This document shows, piece by piece, positions 30,352 to 55,857 of a DNA stretch of 64,000 bases. Numbering within the stretch: the first letter of the stretch is position 1; every line of letters begins with the position of its first letter. This stretch comes from Yuukianura sp. NJ FZ-2021 (Eukaryota). The notes beneath the pieces were generated by a model that worked only from the letters and a program-made list of their open reading frames with translations, did no database searches and was not told the DNA's origin. Both the position numbers and the translations under genes were made by a program. The stretch covers positions 434,001 to 498,000 of the forward strand of contig JAJCTO010000010.1 of NCBI GenBank assembly GCA_046563655.1, read 5' to 3'.

Positions 30352-30445
30352 TATCTAAATGAAATCTGACCCTAAGACTTGAAAATGCCAAACGTTTTAT
30401 ATGAGAGGTATACACACAATGAAATGAGTCATTTGAAGTTTCAAC

Positions 30446-31889: not shown

Positions 31890-32115
31890 ACCCAACAAGG
31901 CTACGCTGGGTGTTACTCCCTGCTGACCACGTGGGTTTTAACCCTGCGTGCAACTTGGGTTTAAGCCCTGCGTGCAACTTGGGTTAAAGCCCTGCGTGCA
32001 ACTTGTATTTAAGCCCTGCGTGCAACTTGGGTTTAAGCCCTTCGTACAACTTGGGTTTAAGCCCTGCGTACAACTTGGGTTTAAGCCCTGCGTGCAACCC
32101 GGGGTTTTTAACCCC
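31880..32115. repeat. 24-bp palindromic-core tandem array (7 units)
   Basis: GGGTTTAAGCCCTGCGTGCAACTT units. Confidence 0.88.
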
Positions 32116-32220
32116 TGTGCCCCCTCTACTTTTTTTTTCTTAAGTAGTAAGTAAACGTTGTATTTTATCTTAGTGTGATTTTGTATTTCGTCAAATAAAC
32201 ACGTGAATCTCAAAAAGAAA

Positions 32221-33020: not shown

Positions 33021-33030
33021 GAGCAAAAAA

Positions 33031-33477: not shown

Positions 33478-33493
33478 CAAAAAAAAAAACAAA

Positions 33494-34843: not shown

Positions 34844-34980
34844 ATACACAACAAATTTATTCTTATCTTGCCAAAATTGTCGGCAAATATCCTTCAACTT
34901 TTGATGTAATTCCAATAGATCATTTGAGTAACATGCAAATTTTCACCTGTCCACTTCTCATGGTCGTCAACAGTGCTCCT
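34840..34980 (+). pseudogene. Protease 5' fragment, copy 2
   Basis: Mirror of 10077-10217. Confidence 0.8.
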
Positions 34981-35352
34981 TATATATATATATATATATA
35001 TGTCCGCTCGGCCGAAGAGCTTAGCGATACTCACACTCCTCCTCCTCAGTATAACACAGACCGGCCCATACCATTGGCGGTGGAGTCCAAGGGCTTTGCA
35101 GCGGCGGCGGTGGTGGCGGCGGCGGTGGTGGGAGAATCCAAAAGTAATTCAACCGAAAGACATTTTGAACAAGTTTTTTCGTGACGTTTAGCAACGTCCA
35201 ATCGTGAAAATAATTTCCCACAGCGAGAGTAGACACTCATTTTACAAAGAGCAAATGACAACTAAACCTCAGCTTCAGAAATGACTTGGTTTATATACAG
35301 AAAATTTTTATTATACAAGTATTTCAAATTTATTCTAATTTTATAATAAAAA

Positions 35353-35620
35353 TTATTTTGGAATATCTCTATGGCCAAAAGCTAGAGTATTGATACTATC
35401 TACAGCATATCTTTTAGTGTCTTACCCGTTGAGAGCCTTCTTCATGGTGACCTCTGTAAAAATTCTGTGTTCGACGCTTCTGAAACCACGCATGGTGACC
35501 ATAGTCTGAACATTCTCCTTGAGGACTCGTTCATAGTCTTCATACTTGACTTGCCCATTCACTGCCGTCTTGGTTATTCCTTTTGCCTTCTTGGTATAGT
35601 CATCCTTCAAGAGCCATTCA
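35353..35620 (-). pseudogene. polB: Polinton C polB extreme 3' end, separated from the rest by Polinton B
   Basis: KKAKGI...TLAFGH. Continues 55858+ once the insertion is removed. Confidence 0.88.
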
Positions 35621-36165
35621 AGTAATAACCTTAGTTTAGCTAGTAGAACCGAGATGGGAGAATTCCATCTCAGTTCTGCTGGCTGATTTGTGCTTTATGC
35701 TGGAAATCTGAAGTAGGTCAGTGGGAATGAAATGCATCCCCCACTCCCCGTGTCCCCCCCCTGCGCATTGAACAAAACAATGTCACGCTGAAGACTCTAC
35801 ACACATAAAATTTGAAAAGAGGATTGGAAAAGAGGAATTGAGTAGTTGCTCTTGAGATGATGGAAATGATGGAAGTTTGTTTAAGAAAATCAAATTTACA
35901 AAACTGTAAATTTTTGAATTTAGACTACAAAACAAAAAAAAACACACAAAAATATTTTCTGATGTTTGTCGATTCATTGAATGCATAAAACAAATTTGTG
36001 AATGTTTTGGATCCAAATTTTGTTTGGTCTTGTTTGGAGGAGTGTGAGAAAAAGTTTCAGATTCTTCACATAAAATTGATGGGTTTCTCGTCACATCTCA
36101 AAAGAACAAAAGCAATAAAATTTGACTTGACACAACATGTCAGAGTTGACACTCTGTAATCCCCT
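35621..36165 (+). repeat. Polinton B left TIR (first ~103 bp near-identical to right TIR, then decaying similarity)
   Basis: Matches the reverse complement of about 55305-55851. Confidence 0.88.
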
Positions 36166-36250
36166 GTTAACTCGATCAATGTCTTTTCAAAATAAGAGCT
36201 TGTGGATGTAATTTCGCTTAAGTTCTATCAATCGAATTTCAGTAACAGAA

Positions 36251-36885
36251 ATGGATCACAGTCAGTTGAAACACTGTCATAATTTTGACACTGTTGTTTT
36301 TAAAAATAAGTTACCAGAATCCCATCCAGCTCTTTCTTTTTTAGAAAAAGAGGGTACTATTTTTGGTAGAAAAGGCGAAGTTTTGGAATTTTCTGAGTCC
36401 TCATCAGAGGATTCAGACGGCGATGACGAAGAGAATGGAGGGCTGTCGCGCCGCTACTGGCGCGAAAAAATTCGAGTGAGACCCCAAGTGGACTTAAGAA
36501 CGTACAGAATGAGAATAAGGCTTGGAAAGTAAGTGAAAAACTATTTTTCAAATAAAAATGTATGTTTGAAAAGTGAAGTTTTGTAAAAAAAAAACTCTAT
36601 TTTCAGGCCTTGTGTATTTAGTTTCAAAATCATGACGATGATGAAGAAGCAAGGTTGGATTCCAGGCCAACGGCTGGGAAAAAACGGGACTGGTCCACTC
36701 TATCCAGTAAGTTGTTTAAGAAGAAGTTCTGAATATGTTAATAGTAGTTTTATTTTATATAAGTTAATTAATTTTCATTTGTGATGTAGATGTATGCGGA
36801 GGAAAGCCAGGAGCTTTGGGGTCAACACTCGGACGGTCGCGGGTTAGGAGCGGAAAGTGTGAAAAGTTTTATGCTCGCAAAATAA
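36251..36885 (+). CDS. G-patch domain protein, 3 exons (36251-36528, 36607-36706, 36790-36885), about 157 aa
   Basis: Spliced product KIMTMMKKQGWIPGQRLGKNGTGPLYP...GRGLG fits the G-patch consensus. Introns are GT-AG and the frame is open. Confidence 0.85.
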
Positions 36886-37247
36886 TTTTTGTTGGTTAAA
36901 TAAAAAGTTTGCATTATCAATAAAATTTGATTAATTTGAGAATGAAAAGTGTTTTGGTTTTGGGAATTCGAGTATAGTCTTTGCAGTTTGGTTAGCTTGA
37001 AAGATTAGGAGTTTGAAGGTAATTTCTTTAATTTTTGGTATTTTTATGAATTGAAGCGGTTGAGCCGCGGCAGCCTTTTTTTACAAATTTCCTTTTACAA
37101 AATTTTGATTAGGTTTTTTCATGATTTTATAATTTTTGTTGCTTGACTCAAAAATAGTTGTACGAAGTTGAATGAAGTGTTTTTTTGCTTTGTGAAAGAG
37201 AGGAGACGACGAAGCTTTGTGTTTCTTAGGATTTGGAGAAAAAGGTG

Positions 37248-37410
37248 GTGGATCTCCAAATCTGTCAAATACTTTGACGGTATTTGATCCACGAATTGTT
37301 CTAGTAATTAAATAAGTAACTCAATTGCCCAGTGGTGTAGATGATCCATTGAGCAATTGAGTTACTTTTATGCAAATTTTTTTGAAATGTATGCTGCGGG
37401 TTCAAATCCC
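37248..37410 (+). ncRNA. Two tandem hairpins plus downstream B-box (Polinton B)
   Basis: Stems 37248-37292 and 37314-37367, the second ending in TTTT, then GCTGCGGGTTCAAATCCC at 37393-37410. Confidence 0.4.
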
Positions 37411-37754
37411 GCACCTTGCAGAATTTTTTAATTTTTTTGTACTATTATATAATATGAGAGTTTGGGGAAAGTTTTGAACCGAAAACTAATGTTAAAAATT
37501 TCGCTAAAAAATTTAAAACACTTTTGTAGTTTTGTTGGAAAACGCTGACAGTTGTTTTGTTATGTAGCTTTTTTCAGCTTTTGAACACACAAATTTTTCA
37601 AAACATGATTCTTTTCAGGGGGAAGTGAGGGGAGTTTAAATGATTCCGTAATGGGGTGCGGCTGGAGTTTAGTATAAATTCTTTGAAATTTTGGGAACTT
37701 TTGATCAGATATGTGACGCTCATGTAGCTAGATTGAGGTAAATACGATTAAGTC

Positions 37755-40700
37755 ATGGCAGGTAATTACTTTTGCTCATTTTGCTCCACATACTTTGATT
37801 CACTTGAGCTGTTTGAAAGTCACTGCCGGAGATATCACAACAGGAATACTGAACAAGCAAGTAAGACTTTGAAAATGTAAATTGTAGCTTTTTTTATCTA
37901 TGTCGAATTGTTTTTTGTTTTAAATGTCAGTGGAACAACCGGGTTCAAGCTAATCCATGAGGGGTAGACCAGTTCACAATACCAATTTTGAGAACAGCTT
38001 AGACAACAGTCAATTCAACGAAGCTTTAACTGATGTTGTTAATATTAATAATAACGGTATACTTATTAAATCCTTTCTTTGCTAAAATGTAACTTTATGA
38101 ATGATTTGGTTTCTCAGAGCTCCTGATGGAGCTTTCTGCGGATGATCTTGAGGTGATTGAGCAAGTACTGCGGGAAGATGACCTTAGCCTTGGTATGTGA
38201 GCTAACCTAACCTAGATTTGGTTCAAATTTGTATTTTTTTTCCAGAACTGTCTCCGCCAAATGTTTGGACAGAAAACGTAAATTTTAAGAACCGATTTTG
38301 TCCACTCTGTGTTGTTCGTTTCAAAGACGCGGGTGATTTGGATTTACATCGGTTTGTCTATCATCCGGAACTTTTTGAGAGAAGTGAAATACCAGTTCAA
38401 GTAGGTGGACGATTAAATGCTGCTGAATTTGTTCTCCAGCGTGGAAGAAGAGGACGTGAAGGTATAGTTCGAGAGTATGTTGCTGACTTGACTAGAAGTA
38501 TTTATGGTGACATTGAAGGAGTGTTTACGTGTCATGAAGTGATTCTATTAGAACTTTTGAGGAACATTTTTTTGGAGATTGGAGCGTATAGAATTTTGGG
38601 GACCGTCTACGCTGAAATGACAAGATTAGCCAGAGATGTCGCTGGTGTCAGTGAAAGTGAAGTTTTCCCATTTCACTCATTTATGCATAGTGTTTTAGAT
38701 CCTAGTATGGTATCAACAGTTATTCATCAATTACAGCGCAAAATGTCACTATCGTTGGAAGCATTTCTATACAATGGTTCGGGGTGGAGAGTGAAACTGT
38801 TTACAAAATTTCAACTACGAATTTTGAAATTTCAAATGGACAGAGCTTCAAGTTACATTCCTACACCAAAGTCAATTCAAAACAAAAATTGTGTTGTGAA
38901 TATAAGAAACACTGATGAGTACTGTTTCAAGTATTGTATTTTGGCAGCATTGTTTCCTCTTTACCAGAATCCAAACATTAACTGGAAAAGATTCACAGAT
39001 CCGAGAGAGTATCTTAAATACAAATGCAGTGTTGACTTTGACTGTATCAACTTTCCAATGTCAATTTGTCAGATGGATAAATTCTTGCACTTTAACTCCA
39101 GTTTAGCAGTAAATGTTTATGGTTATGAGGAATTGGATGAACTGGACTCTAACATTTCAAAAAAGAAGGTCACCGTTTTTCCATTGTATGTGTGTAAGGA
39201 AAGAAGAAAGTTTAACATTGACTTGCTCTTGTTGCTAGATGGTTTGAAAGCTCACTTCACTTTATTAAAGAAAAGTGATTTAAATCCTTCGGAAGGTCTT
39301 TCTAGACTTTTGGGAAAGGAAGAACGGAATTATGCAAAATACATCTGCAGATTCTGTCTACTCTATTGGAAAACAAAGAAGAAGCTCGAGAATCATGAAA
39401 AATACTGTGCCGCTTTAGAACTACAAAGAGTTTCGTTACCAAATGAAAAGTATTTCAATTTCACAAGAATTAAGAGAACACTGCCTGTACCAGTTGTCGG
39501 TTATTTGGATTTTGAAGCAATTTTATTTCCACAAGCAGCAAGTGACCTAACGTCAAAGGTTGGTGATGTGTACAATGAGCACATTGCTTGTGGGTGGTCA
39601 CTCATATTGATTGGACCTCTCGGTGAAGCACTTGAAGGAATTAAAATTTTTCAAGGTCATGACGCGCAGCATACTGCTCTTGATGAGTTAATCAAAACGG
39701 CTTCAAAATATTTTCCACTCCTAAAAGTTGATGTTGGGCGGGATGCAAGATGGTGTACTACAGACTTTTATAACTTGCTTCATGCCTCAACACACTGTAT
39801 ACATTGTGGTATGGAGGTTCCTAACCGCGAAAAAGTGATTGATCATTGTCATTATACCGGAGCTATTCGTGGAATGAGTTGTAGCAAGTGTAACTTAAAT
39901 TGTGAGACAGTTAATTTCATTCCAATCATATGTCACGGTTTTCGTCACTACGACTCAAAATTTATTGTACAAGCTCTTAAAAGTACAAAACTGAAAAAAG
40001 TGGAAGTGCTACCTCACTCGATTGAAAAGTTTACTTCAATGCAATTGACAACTTTAGAAGGATATGTACTTAAGTTCATGGATTCTTTTCAGTTTATAAG
40101 TTCAAGTTTAGCCGATCAAGTCAAAGTTTTGGCAAAGGATAACTTTGATAAGTTTCCCATAACAAAAGCCACATTTGATAAGAATTATAAAAATATTAAT
40201 TTGTTGTTTCGAAAAGGAGTGTATCCTTATACATATTTTGACAATTTTGAAAAGTTTGATGAGACAAGTTTACCGCCGAAATGTCTTTGGGTGAGTGACT
40301 TAACAGGGAAAGGAATTAGTGATGAAGACTTTGAACATGCACAACGTGTTTGGAAAGAATTTGGTTGTAAAACTTTGAGGGATTACCACAACCTATACGT
40401 ATCTCTAGATGTCACACTTCTTGCTGACTGTTTTCAAAACTTTAGGCAAAGATTTTTAGCAGATTTCCGTTTAGACCCTGCTCACTATTACACTTTGCCT
40501 GGTATAGCATATGATGCTGCTATACTATGTGGCAGTGTTGGTTTTGAATATTTGCAAGATTTGGATCAATATACGTTTATTGAGAGAGGAATTAGGGGTG
40601 GTATTTGTAGCGTTGGCTTGCGCTATGCAAAAGCAAACAACAAATTCTTAGGTTCATCCTATGACCCTACGCTACCAACAAGTTATTTATGTTTGTGGGA

Positions 40701-42040
40701 TGCAAACGTGCTGTACGCCCACCAACTTCGAAATTTTGTACCATGGAAAGACTTCCGGTGGGATTTATGTTTGTGGCAAAGGACAGTGAAGCTGGAACGA
40801 TGTCATAAAGATGATTCGGGGTATGGACGACGAAGCGGAAGAAGGTTTAATTTTGGAAGTAGATTTGACGTATCCAAAGGAGCTGCATGATTTGCACAAC
40901 GATTACCCACTTGCAGTTGAGCGGCGATCTATTCAGTTTTCAGATTTGTCATCCTACACACATCATGTTATGTATAACGCAGGAGCGAAGTCTTCAACTC
41001 AAAAAAAGACAAAGTTGGTGGGAAGTTTAGAAGATAAAAAGAATTATGTTGTACACTACAGATTACTAAAACTTTTTTTAGAACTTGGTTTGAAGTTAAC
41101 AAAAGTACACTGTGCTTTGAGGTTCAGACAAGCACCATTGTTCCGTGTATACTGTGAGTTGTGTATAAAAAGGAGCCAAGGGTCAACAAATGAAGTAGAC
41201 AAGAAAGCCTACAAAGCTTTGGGAAACATTTTAGTTGGAAAAACGTTTCAAAATGTTAGAAAATATAAGCGAATTAATGTTGCCCTATGAAAAGAGAAGA
41301 TTTTGGAGTATGGTAAAAAGCCTACAGTAGAAGATATTAGAATAATACATGATGACTGTGTTCTATTTCAAATGAAAAAGTTGTCTGTGTGTTTGAATAA
41401 GCCAATATTTGTAGGGCTTACTGTGTTAGACGATAGTAAAAAACAAATGTATGAAGTATACTATAAGAAACTGAAACCACGTTATGGTAGTAATATGCGT
41501 CTAATATTTACAGATACTGATAGTTTTATGTTATATATTAAGACAGAAGATGTTTATGCAGATATTTATGCTAGTGTAAGGCAAGACGAAGGGCTATTTG
41601 ATACGTCAAATTTTAAGAAAAGTGATAAGCTACTAGGACACTTGTACAGTGACAAGCATGCTGGAGAAGGGGGATACTACAAAGATGAGAGTCCAGAGTG
41701 CATAATTTCTGAAGTTGTGGCTCTAAAACCAAAACTATATTCTTTGAAGCTGGTGACACGTGACGGAGAGGAGAGAGAAATTAAAAAAGCAAAAGGTACT
41801 GTGACTGCAGTGCTGGAGTCTCAGTTAAGCTTCAAAGATTATAAAGATGTATTAGAGGAAGGTAGCTGTAGATTTGTATCAATGAATACTATTCGTAGTT
41901 TAAATCACAAACTGTACACAACAACAATGAAAAAGCAGAGCTTGTCTGCGGTAGATGACAAGGCCTTTTATTTGACACCAATTGAATCCCTTAGATTTGG
42001 ACATTATAAGATTAAAGAGTTTCAAGATAGTGTTGTGTAG
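37755..42040 (+). pseudogene. polB: Polinton B pPolB with spliced 5' C2H2 exons
   Basis: Exon 1 MAGNYFCSFC...HCRRYH. Introns include 38057-38117 and 38193-38245. Motifs GSGW, YLDFEA, DHCH..CN, RKGVYPY, DANVLY and FTDTDS. Frameshift near 40790 and stop at 41288. Confidence 0.92.
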
Positions 42041-42129
42041 AAGGAAGGAAATAAACCAGTTTAATAAAAATTTAATAAATCATGTTTTGAATATGTTTCA
42101 CTTCATTTGCGTACAGAAGTTCGGATAGG

Positions 42130-42775
42130 ATGGAGTTCAGGCCTGAATTGATTCATCCGTTTGTGATGGTGTTGAGTGGACCTACACAAAGTGGAAAGAG
42201 TACACTGATTAGACAATTGATTGAAAGGAGAGATGAAGTAATTGAACCAAAAATTAGGCGTATTATTTGTTGCTACAGTGAGGATGAGCCTAGTTTTGCG
42301 GAGACATTGAGATTACATCATAAAGTTGAATTTAAGCAAGGGATGGAGAATTTGGATGTGGCAGAAGGAAATCAAGTGGAAACAATGGTGATTTTAGATG
42401 ACTTCATGGAGGTTATTGCCAACTCGAAAGAAGTCTGTGCCATGGCCACCAGAGGCTCTCATCATCGCTCTCTTAGTTTAAGTTATAACAGTGCAAAATT
42501 TTTTTTATAAGGGATGTAGAAACCTAACTTTAAATAGTAAATATGTAGTTTTGTTTCGAAATCCCAGGGATACAACAATTATAAAATACTTGGCAAGGCA
42601 AATGAATGGCGGAAAGTCAAACGGGTTGTTGGAAGAAGCATATGAAGACGCAACAAAAAACAAGCCCAATAGTTATTTGTTTATTGATTTATCTCAAAAT
42701 CAGGATGACAATTTTCGTTTTAGATCAAATGTGTTTCCCAGACTCATCCTCTTGTATAGTATATATGAAGAGATA
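42130..42775 (+). pseudogene. Packaging ATPase (frameshifted near 42480)
   Basis: GPTQSGKST, ILDDF, TRGSHH and FRNPRD spread over two frames. Confidence 0.9.
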
Positions 42776-42786
42776 ATAATAAAAGC

Positions 42787-43350
42787 TTACAGTTGCAATC
42801 TTTTGAGTTTCAAAAGTCCTTCCATCAAACAGTCGTATAACTCAACGGGCAAAGCGACTCCGACACTTTGATCAAATTGATTCTTAATGTGCAAGTGTGT
42901 TGTTCCAGAAAATCCGTTTTCATTTCCAAAAAAAAGTTGCCAACCGTCTTCCAAGTTAATTTGAGGTGGAGGAAATGGTTTAGGAAATTCTTTCCGGACT
43001 TCAACGACCATAGAAAGGGATGTAACCTTCTTTGCACGTTGATTAGGTGTAGATTGCCGTCTAATTTTTTTTCCACCTCCAGTTCTGCGACAAGTTTGCT
43101 CAGATTCAGGCTCAGTTGTAGGTTGAGGAGTTGGGTGGATGACAGTGTTAATATATGTATCCATTTCGGTAGCAAATGTAGAAGTAGTTGGAGAAGTAGC
43201 TGGTTTGTCCATAGTACGTTGCCTTCCAAGTTTATTTAAGTTACAATTGCAGGAAAAAGTTTTACACACGGTTATCGTAGTTGTATTATTTCTTTTGAAG
43301 AAAAAATTGGATAATGTTTGCCAAATAGAACAAAAACTACAAGAGCTCAT
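42787..43350 (-). CDS. Conserved Polinton protein (homologue of 15589-16083)
   Basis: Shared N-terminal Cys block and C-terminal LEDGWQL domain. Confidence 0.65.
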   Translation of the reverse strand: MSSCSFCSIWQTLSNFFFKRNNTTTITVCKTFSCNCNLNKLGRQRTMDKPATSPTTSTFATEMDTYINTVIHPTPQPTTEPESEQTCRRTGGGKKIRRQSTPNQRAKKVTSLSMVVEVRKEFPKPFPPPQINLEDGWQLFFGNENGFSGTTHLHIKNQFDQSVGVALPVELYDCLMEGLLKLKRLQL

Positions 43351-43363
43351 TCCTCGATCAAGT

Positions 43364-44350
43364 TCAAACTAGAAATGGTGAAACTTTTAAAAGTTCTTCC
43401 CTGTAAAATATTCCAAAAATTGAAACCCCCTTTTTGTCTTGGATTTGAAAGGTGATTGGATTTGTATTATAAACATTTGAAATTGTAAAAATTTCATTTT
43501 TCCAAGACTGGGCGTAGCCTTTAGCAAAAGTGGATTTAACTTTACTGATAAGTACTTTATCACCAACGTGAAGCAGTTTTGACTTTGGAAATTTGAGTCT
43601 AGATGTATATTTTGAGTACAAATTTAAGAAAACTTGAGTTTTTGTTTCGTTGTTGACTTGATTTGGAGTCATTTTTATTGAGGAATGGTAGGAATTGTTA
43701 TAAGCCTCAACAAGATTTTGCAAAACATGAGTGTATTTTGTACTATTTGAATGAGTCATGTACTTTGCAATCCTATTCATGAGAGTTCTGTTAAACCGTT
43801 CAACTATTACAGCTTTAAGTTCAGAACGGGTATTAAACAAGTTTACTCCTACTTTTTTAAGCATAGTTTTGACATTCTTATTAATAAACTCAGATCCCTG
43901 ATCGCACTGCAACTGCTTAGGCACGCCTCTTTTTTTAAATATTTTTTGTAAAGTTGTAGCTAAAAGTTTTCCAGTTTTATTTTTGAGTGGAATAGCGTCT
44001 GCAACTTTTGAAAAAGCATCAATGCAGGTAGCCAAATATCTATATCCTCCATTTGTGTCTTTGTACTTGGAAAGGTCAACCAAATCAATACAATACTGAT
44101 ACTTCATTGACAGAACAAACACTTTTCGCCGGGGATAACGTTTTCTAGCTGGAACGTGTAAATTATATGCCGGTAGAGATGACAGAGCGTTTCCCACAAC
44201 CTTAGAAAGTGTGGATGCGGAGAGTTTATTTTCTTTAGATTTAAGTAGAGTTTTGAGAATTTGGCGTTGTCCAGTAAAAGCAAAACTATTTTTAGGGTTG
44301 ACATACTGCTGCCTAATTTTTTTTTCAAGTTTGAGGTGACGTCGCGGCAT
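43364..44350 (-). CDS. int: Polinton integrase, 328 aa
   Basis: IDLVD, CDQGSEF, VERFNRTL and FYREEL. Confidence 0.93.
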   Translation of the reverse strand: MPRRHLKLEKKIRQQYVNPKNSFAFTGQRQILKTLLKSKENKLSASTLSKVVGNALSSLPAYNLHVPARKRYPRRKVFVLSMKYQYCIDLVDLSKYKDTNGGYRYLATCIDAFSKVADAIPLKNKTGKLLATTLQKIFKKRGVPKQLQCDQGSEFINKNVKTMLKKVGVNLFNTRSELKAVIVERFNRTLMNRIAKYMTHSNSTKYTHVLQNLVEAYNNSYHSSIKMTPNQVNNETKTQVFLNLYSKYTSRLKFPKSKLLHVGDKVLISKVKSTFAKGYAQSWKNEIFTISNVYNTNPITFQIQDKKGVSIFGIFYREELLKVSPFLV

Positions 44351-44516
44351 GATGACAAGTAGTTGAGGGGGAGTGGGGGGAACTTAAGTTCAAATGTCAA
44401 AAGGGGGCGTTAAAAGGTGACTGAACAAATGTTTTGACTATGTAAATTCTTATAAAGGATTTAGTAATTTGGAAAAGTTTGTTCATTTGAAAAGTTGACA
44501 TGCCGCTGGGAACATC

Positions 44517-44849
44517 ATGTCTCTAAGATTACGAAAAAATTGTGACTTTTTGAAATATTTGTCAACTTGTGCAAAAGAACAACGAATAGGGTTAATAAAA
44601 AACGCAACAAAGCCTGAAATTGAGTCTATTTGTGAATGCATTTTAAATATTTATAAAAAAAACTTTGGAGTGAGTAGTAAAACAATTTCAAAATTAAAAC
44701 CGCATAAGAAGACAATTCTTTCAATTGTAAAACGAAGAAAAACTTCATTATCAAGAAAAAAGAAGCTTTTAACACAACGCGGTGGAGCTATCCTTCCAAT
44801 TCTCCTTGCATCAATAATTCCACCAGTACTTTCCAGAATTTTAAAATAA
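44517..44849 (+). CDS. Small basic QRGG Polinton protein
   Basis: SICECILNI...LLTQRGGAILPILLA. Confidence 0.78.
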   Translation: MSLRLRKNCDFLKYLSTCAKEQRIGLIKNATKPEIESICECILNIYKKNFGVSSKTISKLKPHKKTILSIVKRRKTSLSRKKKLLTQRGGAILPILLASIIPPVLSRILK

Positions 44850-44890
44850 AGCAGTGAGAAGGGAATAGGTAAGTAGGAGGAATTGACAGA

Positions 44891-45014
44891 ATGAAGAGGT
44901 TGAGATTAGTTTCGGAAGCTGAATATAAAAAAAAGTTTGACCCTACATTTGAAGTAAGCAGCAGCGGCAACAGTGGAGTTGATTTGACAAAAAGTTTAGA
45001 TTCAAAGTTGACTC

Positions 45015-45047
<33 letters not shown>

Positions 45048-45994
45048 GTAAAGGGGAACAGTTGCAATTTGGTAAACAACAAATTTTGAGTGCAAAGGAT
45101 ATTCCTGATGACATCAAGGCTTTACTTTATCATGACTTTGCGAAACGGTTACACGAGAGACGTAAAATTTTAGCCAACCAACCTATTCTTGTTAAAAATG
45201 TGGACAGAAAAAAAAAAGGAGCGACGAGTGCAATTTTAAGCAGTAATAATTCTGGAAACTCTTCTATGATTTTGGTTACTGAACCCTACATTTTAAAACA
45301 AATTCCAAAAGTGAAAGAAGGAAAAAAATTGTTTAAACATATGAAACAATGTAACATTTTTTGGAATGATAAGTTTGAAATTGTTATTGACGAAAACCGA
45401 ATTCCATTTTCAAATATTATAAATGTCATTTCATATTACTTGGAAAATTCAAAACGAAGAGAACAGTTTCAACCACCTCCAGGTTGGTATGAAGTACATC
45501 AGCACCTTCAATCCGCATTAGTTTCCCCCACACGCCATAAGAAAACTACTAAAGCAATTTAAATCCATACATTATGGTTCCCTAAACATGTCACCAACTA
45601 AATCTACTCCAGCGCTTAATTTAGAAAAAACATCTCCAGCTTCGTCTAGTATCATTTCATTTGAACCGGGTTCAAATTATTCTACAGCTGATTTAAATAG
45701 TAGTACAGCAATAGAAACATTACCAAATGACTCTCAGCTTTTATTGGATGAAGACCAAGAAGTTGGAAGTGGAGGAGTGGAAAGAAGTGGTGTAGTAGAT
45801 AGACAAGACGAAGAGGGTGTGGAATTTCCTTCAAACAAACGTACTACTCCTATGCTAGCACGTTTGAGAAAAGAAAAACTCCACCTTCAACTCCAAAAAA
45901 AGTTAAAGGAAAAGTAGTAAAAGGGAAACAAGTTGGAAAAGGTTTCAAGCATCGTCCTTCTCCTCCTCCCTTTTTAAATTGGGAAACATACTAA
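44891..45994 (+). pseudogene. Conserved Polinton protein of unknown function (split into 223-aa and 109-aa ORFs)
   Basis: Homologous to 30792-31889. The end coordinate is approximate. Confidence 0.62.
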
Positions 45995-46087
45995 GAAGAA
46001 GAAAAAAAGAGTGAGAAAGAAGGGGAGGCCCCCCCTGGGGGACAGATCGTGCAACTTTTACTAAAAAAGGGGGATCCCTTACCGTTT

Positions 46088-46285
46088 TCCTTGGGATTTT
46101 TTCCCAGCGTGTTCACAGTGGATTTAAATCCAGCGTTCCTCTGGATTTTTTTCCAGCGTGTCCACAGTGGATTTAATCCAGCGTTTCTCTTGGATTCTTT
46201 TCCAGCGTGTCCACAGTGGATTAAATCCAGCGTTCCTCTTGGGATTTAAATTCCTGCCTTAACATTGAGTTTTTAAATCCCTGCG
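46088..46285. repeat. ~45-bp tandem array with palindromic TGGATTTAAATCCA core
   Basis: TTCCAGCGTGTCCACAGTGGATTTAAATCCAGCGTTCCTCTTGG-like units, 3 copies plus degenerate ones. Confidence 0.8.
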
Positions 46286-46339
46286 TTAACTTTGCCTTGT
46301 TTTTTTTAAGTGTGTTGTCCATTTTTAAAAAAAAAAGTT

Positions 46340-47240
46340 ATGAGTTTAATTGGAAACGAAACTTCATTTTATGTTACTTTACAATCTAATGCTTCCATGG
46401 ACATTTTCCCTGGAAATAAAATTTCCGATTTTAAAAATCGGCTTGGCTCTCCAATTTCTCTTCCACCAGGTCAATGGCAAGTAGCTTTAACAAGTATTAG
46501 TTACACATACGGTAGTCCATTCATAAGGAAAGGAGATGTTTTATTTGCCTATACCTTTATTTGAAAAGAAGAAGAAGAATAGTGAAGCATCTACTTTGGA
46601 AACACCTACTTCAAAAATTATATATTTACATAAAGAAAAACCTTTAGAAACAACACATGTGGAAATGAAGGAGGTTGTGGTACCAACAACTGTTCTCATA
46701 CGACCCCCACCTCCAATCTCATCTTACAAAGATATAACTACAGAATCTGAACTACTTCATGTACTTCATAAACTAATTGAGGGAAGTCATTTTGACATTG
46801 ATGGAAACACATTTTCCTATACTATTCCTCTTGATGAACAAGAAACATTGGAATTTTCTCCAAAATTATGTGATATTCTTGGCTTAAGTTCTAATCAACT
46901 TACCTACTCTCATCAAAATTCAAATGGAAAAAACATTTTTAGCGGGAAAGGAACAATGCCAATGTTTTTGAATTCTGGAAATACTAAATTATTCATATAT
47001 TGTCCTTTAATTCGTCCACAATTTGTTGGAGACGTGATGGTTCCATGCCTCCGTGTGATTGATTATGATGGAATTACCGGGAAACAGAAAACACATGAAT
47101 TTATACATCAATTCTTTTATGATATTGCTGTGTCAGAATTTGAAGTAATACACATATATATACGCAATGAAGTTTCTGAACCAGTTGCATTTGAATTTGG
47201 TAACGTGACTGTTACACTACGATTTCGAGAAAAACGTTAG
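46340..47240 (+). pseudogene. Minor capsid protein (frameshift near 46555)
   Basis: FYVTLQSNAS..FPGN, WQVAL, FVGDV and TLRFR. Confidence 0.85.
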
Positions 47241-47253
47241 GATTTTTTGAAAA

Positions 47254-47742
47254 ATGAAACATTCAGGATTTAACTGTCGAGTGGATGAGCCGAATCAATT
47301 CTTTAAATTAAATTATTATACTCCACAATTTGGATACGGTACAGTAGAACCAAGATTGTACTTTTCTGGAGTTAGGAGACAAAAGGGAGCTGGAATTGGG
47401 GGAGTATTTGGGACTTTAGCTAGACGTTTGTTACCATTTGTTAAACAATTTATACTTCCACATGCTGCAAAAGCATTAAAAGGCATTGCTATTGATGCGA
47501 TTGATGGAAATCAAAATATGAAACAGTCTCTTAAAAGTCATGGTCTTCAGGCACTTAAGGCTGCAGGGAGAGACGTTCTTAGTCAGAGTGGATTTGGAAG
47601 ACGAAGACGAAACAAGTCTAAGAAAAAGAAGAAGAGTAGGCGTACTTTGAAACGAGTAGGTCCTAAACCCACCAAAAGGAGAAATAAAATCAAAAGACGA
47701 AGAAGAAAAAAAAATTCAAAAAAAATTAGGTATATTTTTTGA
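47254..47742 (+). CDS. PW-like basic protein
   Basis: RQKGAGIGGVFGTLARRLLPFVK, QSGFG and a K/R-rich tail. Confidence 0.72.
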   Translation: MKHSGFNCRVDEPNQFFKLNYYTPQFGYGTVEPRLYFSGVRRQKGAGIGGVFGTLARRLLPFVKQFILPHAAKALKGIAIDAIDGNQNMKQSLKSHGLQALKAAGRDVLSQSGFGRRRRNKSKKKKKSRRTLKRVGPKPTKRRNKIKRRRRKKNSKKIRYIF

Positions 47743-47752
47743 AAAAAAAAAA

Positions 47753-49132
47753 ATGCCAAAAGTCAAAGCTTCAAAATTAAAAAGTTCATCCCATGCTGCT
47801 CCCTACACTGTCATCCGATCAGAAACACAACTTTTTGAAGAACCAGTCTATGATGTTTCACTTTCTTCAACTTCAATTTCTGAGTATCATTCAATTAATT
47901 CAATCACTGATTCTCAATCTCCACTTGAATTTTTTATTCAATCAAATCAAGTGGAATTTTTAGACCTTGCTGAAACTAAACTATATATTAAGGCACGTAT
48001 TGTTAAAACTGGCAATTCAACTTTAGAGGAAGCGGATATTGTTATACCAACAAACAATTTTCTTCATAGTTTGTTTTCACAATGTTCAATTTATCTAAAT
48101 GAAGTCCAAATCACACCCGCAAATAATTCATATGCTTACAGAGCCTATATTGAAACCTTATTAGCATATGGAAAAGAATTTAAAAAATCTCAAAGTCAAT
48201 GTGCATTTTTCTACAAAGATAAAGATCCTAAAAATACAGATGTAAAATTAGAAGGCGGTTTGAAAACTCGTTACGATTTGTCAAAATCTTCGAATGTAAT
48301 TGAATGTTTGGGACGACCATTCACAGATATCTGTATGCAAAATAAGTATTTAGTACCTGGAATTGATGTTCGAGTTTCGTTTCTCCGCTCTACTCCAGAA
48401 TTTTCACTCATCTCCAACGTAGCTAATGCAAAATATCAAGTGCAAATTTTGGAAAGTAAATTAATAATACAAAAACAAAGCCTTCTTCCATCTCTACTCA
48501 CTTCTACTCTAAAAACTTGGGAACAAGGAAGACCAGTCACTTATCCTCTGAAACGTGTTGAAGTCAAAACTTATACAATTTCTCCTGGAACTATAAATAG
48601 TGTGAATGAAAACTTGTTAACTGGAATTGTACCTAGATAGAATAATTTTGGGACTCATTCCTTCTGAAAATTTTATTGGCACTTATGCTACAAATCCTTT
48701 TGCTTTTGATCATTTTGGACTAAATTATATTCATGTTAGTGTAAATGGAGATTCTGGTTCAAGCCTTCCAGTGGCTTGAACCAGGCTTGGTTCAAGCCTG
48801 GTTCAAGCCATTGTGATTTTGAAGAGAATCAATACGTACAATTGTACAGTAACCTTTTCTACGGACTTGGAATTTCAAATGATGACGTTGGAATTGATTT
48901 AAATTGGAGTGAATTTAAATCTAATCCACTATTCGTTTACAACTTGAGACATATAAAAGACGGATTTCCAGCTCCAAAATATGGAAATGTTAAAATTGAT
49001 TTAAAGTTTAAGGAAGGTTTGAAAAAAGCAATTACTGTCGTTGTCTATTCTGAACTACAGTCAGTCTTACATATCGATAGTTCCAAATCAGTTTACTTTA
49101 GAGACTACAGCGGATCAACTATTGATTCATGA
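47753..49132 (+). pseudogene. Major capsid protein (frameshift near 48635; 35-bp insertion 48774-48808)
   Basis: Collinear with the family A capsid across three frames. Confidence 0.88.
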
Positions 49133-49647
49133 ATACTAATCAAATTTTTTCTTATCTTAACTCTTTTTTGTCAAATAAAAATTGTTCATTCGATGTAATA
49201 CCATGTGACCTTTTAGACACTTACTCAATTAGAAAGTATCCCTTACTCCTTTGTTGTAACACGGACGAATCAAATTCTCCTGGACAACATTAGATTTCAA
49301 TTTTTAGAACGTCATCTCAAACTCCTCTCATATTTGTTGATTCTTATGGAATGGGAGCCACTTTTTACAATAAATTTTTTCAAAACTTTGCCTCTTGTCT
49401 CAACACCTACTTTATAGAAAATACACAACGGCTCCAAAGTTTTAACAGTTCAGTTTGTGGAGAATATTCAATTTACTTTCTATTTAAACTTTATTCTTCT
49501 TGCTGTTTAATGTCAATTTATTGTAACTTTAATCGTAATACTGTTACTAATGACTCTAAATTCAAATACTTTGTTAGAAAAAAAAACTTGCATGTAGAAA
49601 ATTTAATTCAAATTATAAAGCTATTCAATGTTGTCAACCTTTTTTGA
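49129..49647 (+). pseudogene. Adenain-like cysteine protease (TAG at 49291 replaces the W of HW)
   Basis: NTD...PGQH*...DSYG...RLQ...SVCGEY. Confidence 0.88.
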
Positions 49648-49761
49648 AATAAATAAACAACAAATATCCAATTCTCTTTTTTTTCAATGCTGCAAATCTC
49701 TAAACACGAGGCGTTTATTTAGTTCTTTTTTAAAAAAAAAACCAAAAAAGATTAAAATGTT

Positions 49762-50209
49762 TTAGTCGTGTGGGATTCCAACTAGTTCAGCTCGAAAAGC
49801 TTCCAGTTCGTTCAAACAATTTTGAAGGCACTCAGCCAATTTTGTAACCTCTCCCCTATTTGATCGTAGATAAATGTTGTTGAGACGGCGCATTACATAG
49901 GGAATGTTCCGAACTTCAGAATTAGTCGTCTTTCCAAGCCGCTTCATGTAGACCCAAGTAAAGGGATTTCCACGGTACATTACCTCACGACTTCACAAGT
50001 TTAACTTCCTTTCCTCGTTGTCCCACACCGTCAAATCCTCCACCTCTTCAGTCCCTCCTGTAGTAGCAGCAGCAGCTGCAGCGTTTTCCTTTCCCTCTCC
50101 TGACATAGAAACAAAATGAGCTATTATAAACATCACAAGTACTTTCGAAAAGTTTTTTCTCCTTACCCCTTGAAGGCAATTCGGGCGAATTTGGTGGAGC
50201 CTGAGCCAT
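49762..50209 (-). pseudogene. Small two-exon accessory gene with in-frame TGA; function unknown
   Basis: MAQAPP...SRG splices in frame to ...LTVWDNEERKLNL*SREVMYRGNPFTWVY... Confidence 0.45.
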
Positions 50210-50401
50210 GGTTAACCGGTTGATGCAAAAGCAGAAAGTGTCGATAGCAGAATGATAAGCTTTATGAACAAAATTTCCTTCTTTTATACCAAAAAATTCC
50301 CACTTCAGCATCACTCCCAAACTCAAACCCCCTCCTCCAAAAACTATTTTTTTTGCTGAGGAATATTTGTTCTAGAACCTGTTAGCTATACTTTTATTCA
50401 A

Positions 50402-51995
50402 TCAGTATTCATCCTCTACATGCGGAAGTGGATTGAACCTTTGACGATAATCACTTTCAATACCTAACAATTCAGAAATAAAATTTTGTTTCACCAAATT
50501 ATTTTTAAATTCAAATTCCAGTTCAAATCCGTTCAGGACGTCGACTCCCATCCGATCCTCCTCCGTGTCTTCAACATCGTGCCAAATTCTTAGCCTCCGT
50601 GCACAGCATAGAATAAGCCTCCAACACTCCTTGTCAACCACGTAACTTTCCCGCGTACGTTGACTTACTCCACTAATTAACAAAACCTTCGGTTAGTCAA
50701 CTTCAGTTAACATATGAATGAAGACTTCGTGATCGATTTCACAATTGAAATCAATTGGACTCCAATTCGATCTAATTTTAAATAGTACAAATATTTAAGT
50801 CCTGAAAGGCTATGCATTAAATCCCTTCGAGCAATACTACAACCTTTTAATTCTAAAAACTGAAGAGATTCTGGAAGTGTAGGCGTAAATGTTATCCGGT
50901 TATACGGTTCAAACCCCCCTTCACCTAATCTAAACCTAGTAAGTACATGAGGCAAAACTTCTAAGGTTAACTCTCTCAAGTTTATCATTTGAGAGAGTTC
51001 CACAATTCTAAAGGGTCCCCTCGGCGTAATTGTAATATTACTTAGATCTAATACCTTCAAAGAAGTTAGGCTTCTTTCTACAATAGTACTTACACGATTT
51101 AAACTTAGTATATCTAATTCTATTCTAATAGTTTCAAAAGAATTTGGAATTCTGCAAAGGTTCCACAATATAGACACCATACTTGGATGAAAATAGTACA
51201 GAGGGGCACATACTACGGAAATATTTTTCAAATTTGGAAAACTACAAGTTAATTGTACCATCAAAGGTACAAGGAGGACAGTAAAATGGAGGAGGTTCAC
51301 ACTCGACCTCAATTGTAACTAAAGTCGTACGATTATTAATAATAAACTCAAAAAAGTTACGAATACATTTTTCGGAAAACGGGTGGTTGATGGAAAATCG
51401 CTGTAGATTTGGAAAACAAATAATTTTACCAAGAAACTTAGCAACAGGACCACCTACAAGTTGGTTATGTCTTGTGTCAATAAAGTTAGACTTAAATTCT
51501 AAACTAGTTAACTTATTTAAACCAAAGCACATTCGGTCCAAAATTCCCTGCTCCAACTCTTCAACAAACATTAGAAATAAAAATTTAACTGAATTTACCA
51601 TTGAACATATTTCTAAAGCTTCTCTAATACAATCTTGGGACACTGGCCCTGAAAATAAAATACTTTTTACGAGATGTGGATACATCAATGGCGGTAAAAG
51701 TGGCTTCTCTGTTGAAGACAACTGCAGAAATTTGATTTTTCTGAATTTGAAAAAATCAAGCGTCGACGGGTCTGGGTGAAACATTGTCCACATTCCCACA
51801 GCGTCTATTGCGTCTTGCCACGTTTTTGAAACGGACCTCATTGTTTTAAGATCCTCATTTTCCAAAAACGACAGAATACCTTCACAAACCTTCATCAACA
51901 AAAACAATCAAGAATAAAAGTATCCTTAACTGAAATATGATTATGCTCTTTTTTCAAAAGAAATGTACCTCCAATGGCAAATCTCCCAAACTCAT
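50402..51995 (-). pseudogene. F-box / LRR-like protein (exon 1 51995-51969; frameshifts near 51300 and 50720)
   Basis: Spliced MSLGDLPLE|VCEGILSFLENEDLKTMRSVSKTWQDAI is an F-box. LxxLxL repeats follow (LTSLEF, LKVLDLS, LRELTL, LQFLELKGC). Confidence 0.82.
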
Positions 51996-52205
51996 TTTAT
52001 TGTTTAAAAGAAATTTTGTTAGCACGAAGATGCAGTCAAAAAACAAAATGTGAAAACACACTGAGTTCAAATCCCAAACAGGTAGCTCCTTTTATTCTGC
52101 AAACAGACTCAGCTCAAATCCATTTTAATTCAAAGAAGGAAAACATCTAATAGCGACTAACATCATTCTAAATTAGGGGGGTGTGTAACTGAATTACCAA
52201 AAAAC

Positions 52206-53931
52206 TCAATTTTTGGATAAGTCGATGACATCATCGTCTGTATCCTCAAAGCGATGACCTGTTGGTGGACTTCCCTCACCAATTTCACTTCCTCTGTACA
52301 TAATCAACTCTCGACCCTCCGGAGTATCCTCTCCCGGATCACATACGGTGACCCCAACATTGGAGCCAGGTTCAACTGACTCCAAAGCACCGGAGACAAC
52401 AGTAGACGAAGCCGCAGGCTTCTTGGCAAGTATATTTGCCAGCCCAAGACGCACAGGATTCCACCACAACTTAGGCTCTTGTGCTTCTCGCGGCCGCTTA
52501 GCAGCCGGCCCCCTTCCCGAAGAATCCACCTGAATCCTGTTGTCTCCATACGGCTGGCTCATTCCAGGACGGATGGTTAAATTTGGAAGAAGCAGTAGTT
52601 GAGTCAGTGAACTTGGTGGACCAACATTTGGAGCGTTGCCACATTGCATCGGAAGGGTCGGACGTACTAAAGATGTTCCAACCAAGGGCGGTGGGACCAC
52701 GGGCACAACTGAACCTTCCTGAACTGCCGGCGTCGCTCCTTGAGGAAGAGTAACAGGACCAAAAGCAACAGCGTCCTCAATACGATCTGGACCACCTTCG
52801 CTTCTACCCGTCAGCAATCCCGAGACTATGGTATTTCTCAGATTACTAAAACAAAAAAAATTTACCAATATTTAGTTAATAACAAATTAACTTACAATTT
52901 AAAAATTCTAAAATTACCTAGATCGAATGAGTCGTTCAAAGGCCGACTTAATTGCATTGAGCTCATGCTCATGCTTTCGGCTTAATTCGATTATCCGATT
53001 CTCCCTGAAACAAATTAAATACTTAGTTAAATTGACCAACAAAACATAACAAACAAGTAAATATCAAGAATATCGTACTTGTAATTTTAACTGACCTGCT
53101 TATGATGGCATTCTCAAGATCTTGTTTTAACTTTCTTTCAATTATCTCACCGCCGCGCACCCGTCCCTCCAACTCCCCTCTCAGTCGAGTAATTTCAGCC
53201 AGTTGAGTTTCCCTAAAAAAAATTATAATACATTTCAGAAATTTTTCTTGTGAAAAGTTGCAAAAATTGAATTTTAAAACTTGCGCATCCAATTTCCCTT
53301 TCAATTCCTCAACTCGTCTGCACGTAACCTGCATGGCACTTGCGACGGAATTCATGGCTTGGCTAAAAAAAAAGTTTTTTTTAGGAATAGGTTGATTTTA
53401 AAACGTTATGTATAAATGATTCAAAGATTTTACTTACCTCACAATCAAGTAATCACCCGCCCCATAGTTCAGCATAACACGGAATCCTTTGACTTCGTGT
53501 GCCTTGGAGAAAATTGGTGCCCTACACTGCGGGCTTGGAACTTGGAAATGGACACGGAGTGCTGAAAAAGCATTTGATTCAATTAACTAACCGTACTAGA
53601 GTGATAAACTTATATAAAAAATGTTAACCTTCTGCGCTGTTCCAAAACGTTGACAATAGTTCCCACCGCAATGATTCTTTTCATCAAGCATCTCCTAAAC
53701 AAAAATATCGAATTAGTTTACCTTAAAACTAGAAAGTTATTGTTTCCAAAACATATTTCCAGAAACTCACCAGTGAAAAGCATGGTAACATTCGGTTACC
53801 CACACTGATGCGTGTGCGCCGGAAACTTCGACAAAAGCTGGATTATTGTCAACAATTGAAAATTTACACAAACTACACGTAGCAATTGGCATCGTAACTT
53901 GTCTGTGCCTAAGCTTTCGTGTAATAGACAT
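52206..53931 (-). pseudogene. RING-H2 + coiled-coil protein with C-terminal SIM-like motif, about 7 exons
   Basis: CSLC...ECYHAFHWRC...CPF/PQCR, heptad-rich middle exons, and a DDDVIDLSKN end. One apparent frameshift near 53535. Confidence 0.68.
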
Positions 53932-54584
53932 GTCTACTCTGGAACTCAGCGTCTTTTAAACTTTCTACAGAAGTTAAAAATTTGAAGATCATCAGCTTGA
54001 AAATCTAGGGGGTTTGTACAACCAAAGAAAAAGTTTCTGCCTAAATCCAAAAACTGATATCAATTTTCAATAAAAAGCTAAGTCTTCGTATGGAGATAAT
54101 GGTGGGGAGTCCAGACTCATTAGGGCGGGGAGCGTCATTAGTAGACTTTGTGTCTTAAACTCAATTTTTTTCATGAAAAATATGTTACAAACGCTTTTTC
54201 AAAACCCAACGTGTTTTCTGTTTTTAGTGTTTTTAATATAGACAAAATAACATTTACTTAGATTTTTTAAAGAAAGAGCAAATATTTATTTTGGAATTCA
54301 ATTCTTGAAGTACAAATGAATTCCGCAAAACTTTGAGCTAGGGGGCAGAGATTATTTGAATTAGTCGGTCGTTAATTAGTTTTGGGAGCATCAAAGCCTA
54401 GATCCATTCTTTTTCCGAATGTCCAAATTTTTCTGGAAAGGGAAGGGGGGGGGGCAAAAGATCATCGATGATTATTTACAAATTTTGAAAAACTTTGTCA
54501 ACATGTTTCTAAATGTTTCTAAACGTTGAGCGTTTCTTTTTGATTAAAAAATTATGCATTTTACTAATTCTCAAATCCGTTGAA

Positions 54585-55142
54585 CTAATTGCAGTGGTAA
54601 CCTTCTACTTTTTGTGTCCTCTTGCTACCAAACCCTATCCTAGCTTGGAAATCATCCAAATCTTCTACCACCTGCAATTGCAATTTTGAAAATGTAGTGT
54701 GATATTTGAAGACACAAAATTACAAAAACAAACGTAATCACAGAATATTACATACCGCAGAAAGAATCCCATTTCCATTGGTTCCAAGTCGTCTCCCGGG
54801 TTTCCAACCCATTCTCTTCATTATTTTTAGTACAACTTTACTAATACCGGCAGGACTAGAAAATTTTATTCAAATTAAAAATTAGTTCACATTGAACTTG
54901 AAAAAGAATTTCAATTTTGAAAGAACATATAAGTTTAAAATTATAGGAATAACTTACATGTTTAACACACTAAAAAAACTAAGCACAAATGAGTTGTAAT
55001 TTGTGGCAGCTACACTGTCTTCCGATTCCTTAATGAAAACTGTGAAGTTTTTCTCCAAAAAATCATACACTTTGTGACCCTTCGGGAAACGTTTTTCAAA
55101 ATTTTCTAGATTAAAATTGTGACACACTGACAAATTTTCCAT
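54585..55142 (-). CDS. G-patch domain protein, 3 exons (55142-54958, 54855-54756, 54671-54585), about 123 aa
   Basis: VVLKIMKRMGWKPGRRLGTNGNGILSA...RIGFG. The N-terminus CHNF...FLEK is homologous to the gene at 36251. Confidence 0.85.
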
Positions 55143-55304
55143 TTTTCCAGGCTGAACTTTTGTTCTAGACACCCCTAGTTAGAAACTGATTTTACATTTC
55201 TATTTAGAACTGCAACTTTGTCTTCAGAACTGATTTGTGTAGACAAAGTAGCTACATAAAATAATTTTTTGCAAATCCATTGATCGAATTTGCAAACATC
55301 AAAC

Positions 55305-55851
55305 AGTGTCAACTTTGACATTCTATGTCAAGTCGAGACAAAAGATTTATTGCTTTTCCCATTTGAAGGGAACCCCATTAATTTAATGTGGAGATTCTCT
55401 CACTTCTTCTCACAGTTCTCAAATCTCACACATCTAATACCAAGTCAAAAAAATCAGTTCCAAACCATACATGCATTGTTTCATATACAAAATAAATCGA
55501 CATACGTCAGAACTTATTTCTAGTTTTTGAAAAAAGTCAAACATTGTATTTTCATCAATACATCTTTTTTCAAAAAACTTCTGTCATTTCAATTGGAAAG
55601 GGTGGGGGGGGGGGGACAATTAGGGGTGTCATTTCATCTCATGAGCAAATCCTCTCTTCACATTTCTTGTGTGTAGAGTCTTCAGCTAGAGATTGTTTTG
55701 GTCCAAGTGGAGGGAGGGGGATGGGGAGTGGGGGTTGCATGTCATTGCCACTGACCTACTTCAGATTTCCAGCATAAAGCACGAATCAGCCAGCAGAACT
55801 GAGATGGAATTCTCCCATCTCGGTTCTACTAGCTAAACTAAGGTTATTACT
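55305..55851 (-). repeat. Polinton B right TIR
   Basis: Inverted match to 35621-36165. Confidence 0.88.
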
Positions 55852-55857
55852 AATTCA

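Follow-up and report, generated by a model that had tools for sequence, protein, structure and literature searches.

In a window of 64,000 nucleotides (nt) from Yuukianura sp. NJ FZ-2021 (assembly GCA_046563655.1, contig JAJCTO010000010.1, positions 434,001 to 498,000 of the forward strand), which is the whole stretch of DNA analysed here and to which all positions below refer, we found a Polinton (Maverick) of 20,231 bp (35621-55851) that carries a small G-patch gene at each of its two ends. We consider it likely that these genes, called A and B hereafter, are two real, spliced and paralogous accessory genes of a Polinton of the pPolB2/HNH type, that they lie in the old inner part of its terminal inverted repeats (TIRs) and that their products would clamp a host DEAH helicase.

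By splicing on the coordinates, we could reproduce the three-exon models of both genes exactly (Table 1), with predicted products of 157 amino acids (aa) for A and 123 aa for B and a joint coding length of 846 nt. All four introns are of the GT..AG type and measure 78-102 nt, with the donor GTAAGT in three of them and TTTTCAG, TTGCAG, TGTAG and TCTAG as acceptors, and the GC content is 32-50% in exons versus 19-27% in introns. Short AT-rich introns and TTTCAG acceptors of this sort would suit a rhabditid nematode as host. At 8-9 nt ahead of each ATG there are TTTCAG / GTTCAG acceptors, where a spliced leader might be joined. Also, AATAAA signals were found within about 50 nt downstream of gene A exon 3. 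At the base composition of the element, a random frame would stay open over 157 codons with P ~8e-6 and over 123 codons with P ~1e-4. The two products have the same layout: they begin with a short conserved block and end in a G-patch, the two being joined by a charged linker that varies, and in gene A the G-patch is preceded by a basic stretch rich in R and K. The initial annotation of this stretch of DNA had described a common N-terminus (C-H-N-F ... F-L-E-K) followed by a G-patch, and both were indeed present in the two spliced products, which are 30% identical to each other (E 2e-13). When the spliced products were compared with the whole window by tblastn, the matches were the two genes reciprocally. 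At the level of sequence, these data confirm A and B as spliced-gene structures, with chance excluded, and show them to be paralogues whose introns agree in position and phase.

The G-patch was first assessed with the Pfam profile PF01585, whose gathering threshold is 22 bits. The 33 residues of the middle exon alone scored 27.9 bits (E 2.2e-6) in gene A and 33.9 bits (E 2.9e-8) in gene B, both above the cutoff, so that the profile check which the initial annotation had called for came out in its favour for exon 2, over profile positions 6-28 (A) and 2-29 (B) of 45. The open reading frame (ORF) around gene A exon 2 (36587-36781) reached 29.4 bits with the same profile, while exons 1 and 3 of both genes, each taken alone, had no meaningful Pfam match. 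Second, we compared the residues of both genes by eye with the consensus Gx2hhx3Gax2GxGlG...GhG, in which the closing GhG comes 10-16 residues past the small residue (PMC11459146), and with the DHX15 contacts in the NKRF structure, namely a brace-helix hydrophobic pair, an invariant G and aromatic, a conserved L and the hydrophobic residue of the closing GhG (PMC7132122). Both genes contain the core G-W-x-P-G-x-R-L-G-x-N-G-x-G, and all the NKRF-type contact features have counterparts in both of them: the brace-helix pair (M-M / I-M), then G-W, then the L of R-L-G. Also kept in both genes are the next G, the G after the conserved L, the G four residues on, the small residue and a closing motif, G-L-G in A and G-F-G in B. 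In gene B, this motif follows 12 residues past the small residue, within the 10-16 of the consensus. Since the closing GhG appears only after splicing, it gives mild support to the proposed junction of exons 2 and 3. Among solved G-patches, the nearest by sequence are C. elegans STIP-1 (8ro0), SUGP1 and TFIP11, all of them partners of DHX15, with weak matches (E 0.006-0.2 for B, 0.006 being that of STIP-1, and 0.74 for A).

Characterised G-patches bind their DEAH helicase across the winged-helix and RecA2 domains and raise its RNA affinity, ATPase activity and unwinding (PMC7132122). The products of genes A and B would most likely bind a helicase too, because the motif is conserved and because the Mason-Pfizer monkey virus, or M-PMV, offers a precedent, so that the helicase adaptors postulated by the initial annotation are plausible. 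Under this proposal, the partner would be a DEAH helicase of the host, DHX15/Prp43 or possibly DHX16 or DHX35, whose winged-helix and RecA2 domains the G-patch would clamp. The helicase would thereby be activated or redirected, and the N-terminal block would choose the target. The genes are presumably expressed and may be of benefit to the element.

The comparison of the two genes with each other further shows that both have been maintained for a long time. Among the 110 codons aligned, synonymous differences reached a proportion (pS) of 0.84, which is above the saturation limit, versus 0.45 for non-synonymous ones (pN); the corresponding values were 0.77 and 0.41 in the N-terminal block and 0.81 and 0.35 in exon 2. 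Both copies kept the start codon, the two introns in position and phase, a middle exon of 100 nt and the residues of the motif. Synonymous sites being saturated and non-synonymous sites not, with frame, introns and motif all kept, this requires long purifying selection on both copies, and A and B are therefore real, long-maintained genes. The initial annotation had seen another sign of selection in the fact that the two genes are open in an element whose core is mostly broken. This argument carries no statistical weight: we counted at least eight lesions in four broken genes over an assessed core of ~8.7 kb that includes two intact genes, or about one lesion per kb, and at this density the 846 coding nt would stay intact by chance ~45% of the time.

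Other copies of the element family were found in contigs of the one DNA sample that contains it, where the family is multi-copy. Among the 40 differences listed out of 780, two fall inside gene A and both are intronic. One contig joins position 37110 to 53365 with 39 other letters between them. It represents a derivative with an internal deletion, in which the two G-patch genes would be retained.

How the pair arose can be read from the ends of the element and from the site at which it is inserted. The window contains a near-perfect palindrome, with its left arm at 8764-20959 and its right arm at 24005-35620, resuming at 55853-56532. The element interrupts the right arm only, while the left arm represents the uninterrupted empty site, with matching flanks: ATTCA occurs once at the empty site (~9439-9443) and on both sides of the element. 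Between the two arms there are 45 substitutions and 13 gap openings over ~12.3 kb, which means that the palindrome exists as real DNA and is not a perfect fold-back. Because the terminal 100 nt of the element match at 99 of 100 positions and because an empty site exists, the insertion is young on the scale of the divergence between the palindrome arms.

When one end was compared with the reverse complement of the other by sensitive blastn, 35621-36214 aligned with 55851-55245 (70% identity over 629 columns), and the alignment stopped just short of both start codons, which are located 631 and 710 nt from the element termini. Identity fell in steps, from 99/100 in the first hundred columns to 81/99 in the next, then to 55-75% up to ~36190 and beyond this point to a background of 33-53%. 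Inside the genes, exon 2 alone could still be aligned as DNA (63% over 75 nt, z = 5.2 versus shuffles), and intron 2 and exon 3 did not stand out. In addition, the regions upstream of both genes have a conserved block of 35 nt in common, which includes a TGACA..TGTCA palindrome and could be a shared regulatory site. Since the tips are near-identical and the insertion is young, the inner divergence, that of the genes included, must predate the insertion. The data fit an old duplication carried in a once-longer terminal repeat, whose copies later diverged while the tips alone were kept homogeneous. In this scenario, a gene present once at each end and reading inward would have been held inside the old inner part of the TIRs, of which the outermost 100-200 nt stayed identical while the inner part diverged for long, both copies keeping their frame, introns and G-patch. 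The proposal of the initial annotation that the genes were duplicated through a longer TIR is thus upheld, as the ends remain alignable at 55-75% for ~600 nt right up to the genes.

As for the type of the element, what defines the pPolB2 Polintons, described from nematodes, is the HNH insert in their polymerase B (PMC10748475, in which 266 nematode Polintons are catalogued). For this reason, we assign the element to the pPolB2/HNH-type Polintons (Mavericks) of the nematode kind, on the strength of its gene content and ends: it has TIRs, a 5-bp target-site duplication where 5-8 bp are expected, an HNH-insert polymerase and an rve integrase. In the 894-aa polymerase ORF, Pfam detected Endonuclease_7 (HNH) at 28.1 bits, the type of the polymerase being read from this insert and from its relatives. 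Its best relative in the database has a length of 1281 aa, shares 44% identity and contains the same HNH family (PF02945), and four proteins reached E <= 1e-10 among the 8000 candidates scored; no relative of the polymerase was found in IMG/VR.

Several results weigh against our interpretation of the pair. First, the G-patches depart from the consensus. In both genes, two glycines of the consensus are replaced: 8 residues before G-W there is an I or V, and R takes the place of the middle G in GxGlG. In gene A, 17 residues separate the small residue from G-L-G, one above the 10-16 of the consensus. Second, the pair stands alone in its surroundings, as tblastn revealed neither a third copy nor any other relative elsewhere in the 64-kb window and no such gene in the related neighbouring element (~65% nt identity in the core); that this neighbour lacks it implies that A and B are accessory rather than core genes. 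Third, other contigs join position 55105, which is inside gene B exon 1, to 49373, so that at least one copy of the element may be without an intact gene B. Fourth, no family member came up outside the element in collections which cover nematode assemblies poorly and thus say little about rarity. A word search of 5.8 billion proteins with exon 1 and with the 43-aa G-patch ORF found none. A HMMER profile search of 1.84 billion representatives gave two matches, both rejected as Ig-like/FN3-like repeat proteins that score through summed weak stretches of the acidic linker. Three loci were obtained by scanning IMG/VR with the two-exon alignment, and none of them is a member of the family. These are a 287-aa ORF with a generic G-patch (36.7 bits) in a metagenome-assembled genome of a giant virus (L001, 376-1236), a glycosyltransferase-like false match (L002), and an RNA-virus polyprotein (L003, 1-3072 and 3827-6877) with a G-patch of 49 bits and a trypsin-like protease, followed by an RNA-dependent RNA polymerase and an S-domain coat. 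Finally, a degenerate DNA pattern for G-W-x-P-G-x-R-L-G-x-N-G-x-G matched twice in metagenome contigs, both times by chance in GC-rich contigs without G-patch context. Besides these searches, exon 1 gave no usable match in the ESM Atlas, and an AlphaFold2 model of exon 1 from a two-sequence alignment was unusable (with a pLDDT of 41.6 on average).

An alternative that we hold to be unlikely is that the genes are passengers, i.e. that a fragment of a host G-patch gene was captured with its introns into a long TIR without serving the element, selection having acted in the host or only briefly. Captures of this sort are known from nematode Mavericks. The core genes of these Mavericks are reported to be intronless, and the intron-bearing genes beside their TIRs have been read as host-derived cargo (bioRxiv 10.1101/2022.07.12.499685). 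Likewise, host-like F-box and leucine-rich-repeat ORFs sit on the same side of our element, the neighbouring related element is free of G-patch genes, and the closest solved G-patch, although a weak match (E 0.006), belongs to a host-type splicing factor, C. elegans STIP-1/TFIP11. On the other hand, synonymous saturation in two copies that kept frame, introns and motif requires long selection on both while they travelled with the ends of the element, a block is conserved upstream of both, and neither word nor profile searches found a host protein with the N-terminal block. The cargo genes known from nematode Mavericks (wasp/wosp proteases and krma kinases), which are of host origin and pass between species, are similar to A and B in having host-type introns and in lying between a TIR and an intronless core. 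They differ in that they belong to other protein families, whereas A and B are much smaller and form an inverted pair at both ends inside an old repeat.

If A and B do serve the element as helicase-binding accessory genes, the gain could lie in help for its own spliced messages or in DHX15/Prp43 being diverted from surveillance; there would be no gain if the genes are passengers. A Cryptococcus G-patch protein and Prp43 are required for RNA interference (RNAi) against transposons (PMC6643885). A more specific version, in which the pair captures DHX15/Prp43, either as an activator on the spliced transcripts of the element or as a decoy, and thereby blunts small-RNA silencing coupled to splicing, is in our opinion distinctly unlikely. 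If true, it would mirror the Cryptococcus case from the side of the parasite and converge with the retroviral hijack of DHX15 (PMC6643885, PMC11459146). The initial annotation had suggested that the genes steer host splicing or RNA sensing, and this part of it remains speculation.

It is very unlikely, as we see it, that the G-patch works without a DEAH helicase, for instance by binding nucleic acid or another partner during replication or packaging of the element. The two replaced glycines and the R/K-rich stretch in front of the G-patch of gene A would suit such a role, but the residues that contact the helicase are kept, and the retroviral G-patch, which was once thought to act on nucleic acid, has now been shown to recruit DHX15 (PMC11459146). 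That A and B are decayed relics or chance ORFs, unexpressed and without present function, is highly improbable: broken polymerase, ATPase and capsid-like genes and the ~45% chance for two short genes to survive since insertion speak for it, but the improbability of the open frames (P ~1e-5 and 1e-4), the conserved splice sites, phases and exon size, a pN far below pS, the Pfam match in both genes and the young insertion (terminal 99/100 and empty site) all stand against it.

With A and B read as accessory genes whose products would recruit a host helicase, several known systems can be compared. In retroviruses, the G-patch is fused to the protease. In M-PMV, it is a cofactor that pulls host DHX15 into particles for genome packaging (PMC11459146). 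The similarity to our element is that in both cases a virus-like or integrating element encodes the G-patch, DHX15 recruitment being the mechanism that we propose here. In contrast, the motif of M-PMV is contained in a viral polyprotein and serves the packaging of an RNA genome, while A and B encode stand-alone small spliced proteins and are two diverged paralogues in the terminal repeats of a DNA element. The cellular cofactors of DEAH helicases (NKRF, TFIP11/Ntr1/STIP-1, SUGP1, Pfa1/Sqs1 and Spp2/GPKOW) share with A and B the brace-helix hydrophobics, the G and aromatic, the L and the closing GhG. Unlike these cofactors, A and B have two glycines replaced, carry an N-terminal block without detectable relative, are very small (123-157 aa) and are encoded by a mobile element. 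As to the element itself, the nematode pPolB2/HNH Polintons likewise have an HNH-insert polymerase, an integrase, an ATPase (a probable one in our element), TIRs and a 5-8-bp target-site duplication (PMC10748475).

The arrangement of the genes also recalls the ends of linear DNA virus genomes. Poxviruses carry genes in their inverted terminal repeats (ITRs) and adenoviruses have early genes beside theirs. There, too, host-interaction genes occupy the two ends of the genome, where the repeat makes them diploid and they are read from either end. The proteins, however, are unrelated, and the copies in our element have not been held identical, their identity now being 30%. The pair also indicates that Polintons of this kind harbour genes for interaction with the host in their subterminal regions, and that a gene located in a long terminal repeat can give rise to diverged paralogues even though the tips of the repeat remain the same.

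DHX15/Prp43 and DHX16/Prp2 proofread and disassemble spliceosomes and build ribosomes. To our knowledge, G-patch proteins are the only dedicated activators of these helicases, and we know of no mobile or viral users of the G-patch other than betaretroviruses. A stand-alone Polinton G-patch pair, long kept at the ends of the element, would then be a second, independent mobile or viral case, this time in a DNA element and in an animal group amenable to genetics. Full-text searches found no literature that links G-patch genes to Polintons or Mavericks, and among the listed papers combining G-patch and "DNA transposon" none describes a transposon-encoded gene of this kind in its title or abstract. 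G-patches also go unmentioned in the available portions of the papers on nematode Polintons and Mavericks (PMC10748475, bioRxiv 10.1101/2022.07.12.499685), whose supplementary ORF lists lie outside the search. Both the helicase-cofactor motif and the accessory-gene biology of Mavericks are known, and it is their combination that appears not to have been described previously.

Table 1. Features of the Polinton with its two G-patch genes, by position in the window.
Feature	Position	Strand	Remarks
Left target-site duplication	35616-35620	.	ATTCA
Left TIR	35621-35825	+	140 nt at 94%, then 72 nt at 82%
Diverged inner left repeat	35826-36214	+	contains the block conserved upstream of both genes (~36125-36160)
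Gene A exon 1	36251-36528	+	278 nt, phase 2; encodes the conserved N-terminal block, followed by an acidic and a basic stretch
Gene A exon 2	36607-36706	+	100 nt; brace helix and glycine-rich G-patch core; PF01585 profile positions 6-28/45
Gene A exon 3	36790-36885	+	closing G-L-G and stop codon
Protein-primed DNA polymerase B with HNH insert	38206-42040	+	frameshift near 40797, in-frame stop at 41288
Probable packaging ATPase	42129-42868	+	spread over three frames (order 2, 3, 1)
ORF	42790-43368		open
rve integrase	43367-44383	-	rve 55.3 bits; single alignment without stops, open
Homologue of the 503-aa ORF of the neighbouring element	47555-49123	+	stretch ~48620-48800 out of frame, four stops
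F-box and leucine-rich-repeat ORFs	50051-51907	-	host-like cargo on the strand of gene B; F-box 22.3 bits (cutoff 20.5), LRR_4 23.3 bits (below cutoff)
Gene B exon 3	54671-54585	-	closing G-F-G and stop codon
Gene B exon 2	54855-54756	-	100 nt; G-patch core; PF01585 profile positions 2-29/45
Gene B exon 1	55142-54958	-	185 nt, phase 2; conserved N-terminal block
Diverged inner right repeat	55245-55647	-	upstream of gene B
Right TIR	55648-55851	-	
Right target-site duplication	55853-55857	.	ATTCA; one extra A at 55852

The state of the core genes was judged against the intact ORFs of a related element contained in the palindrome arms. Between polymerase and capsid-like ORF, this element is colinear with ours and shares 64-75% nt identity with it, and its ORFs are uninterrupted (polymerase of 1250 aa at 24332-28081, ATPase of 219 aa, integrase of 321 aa and the 503-aa ORF). 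By position and size, the homologue of the 503-aa ORF is probably the major capsid protein. In Pfam, the ATPase matched Adeno_IVa2 at 21.1 bits (cutoff 21), together with AAA families including AAA_14 below their own cutoffs. Neither a protease nor a fusogen was identified. The statement of the initial annotation that most core genes are broken was roughly right: the polymerase, the ATPase, the capsid-like gene and the homologue of the neighbour's 418-aa ORF, which has three in-frame stops, are broken, whereas the integrase and the ORF at 42790-43368 are open. Other family copies in the DNA-sample contigs differ in their indel state in some of the broken stretches. We also asked if the stop clusters of the core genes could be introns, and rejected this, as similarity is lost in the capsid-like stretch, which looks shifted in frame and not like an insertion. 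The same annotation had called the element intron-rich, which is not supported: its core aligns colinearly with the uninterrupted ORFs of the neighbour, and introns were seen in the accessory G-patch genes only.

The palindrome arms hold most of this second pPolB2 Polinton, which is largely intact. A repeat of 158-200 nt (22957-23156, 35103-35260 and 9799-9989; 90-97%) could be its TIR, the second Polinton then extending over 22957-35260. If so, the element with the G-patch pair lies ~360 nt outside the second Polinton and not inside it. Beside the putative left end of the second Polinton, arrays of a 42-nt tandem repeat form a small palindrome (23159-23745; 93-95%). Its two copies are separated by a centre that is not palindromic and contains a 250-aa ORF on the minus strand (21572-22321). 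With its BIR domain (35.8 bits) and RING domain (43.9 bits), this ORF resembles an inhibitor of apoptosis, and it may be another subterminal host-interaction gene.

Further mobile elements and repeats were observed in the window. Three consecutive ORFs on the minus strand (55836-58947), with 29-36% identity to the polymerase of the element studied here, represent a third and more distant polymerase B gene, and inverted repeats of 272 nt (22686-22957 / 63133-63404; 96%) may delimit a third element that encloses the others. At 842-5536 there is a retrotransposon with identical long terminal repeats of 198 nt (842-1039 and 5339-5536) and an open pol ORF of 1413 aa (reverse transcriptase, RNase H and integrase), followed by DDE_Tnp_4 transposase fragments at 6041-7352. 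Lastly, 62437-63000 is occupied by a long tandem array whose unit measures 11 nt and for which at least 42 registers were counted.

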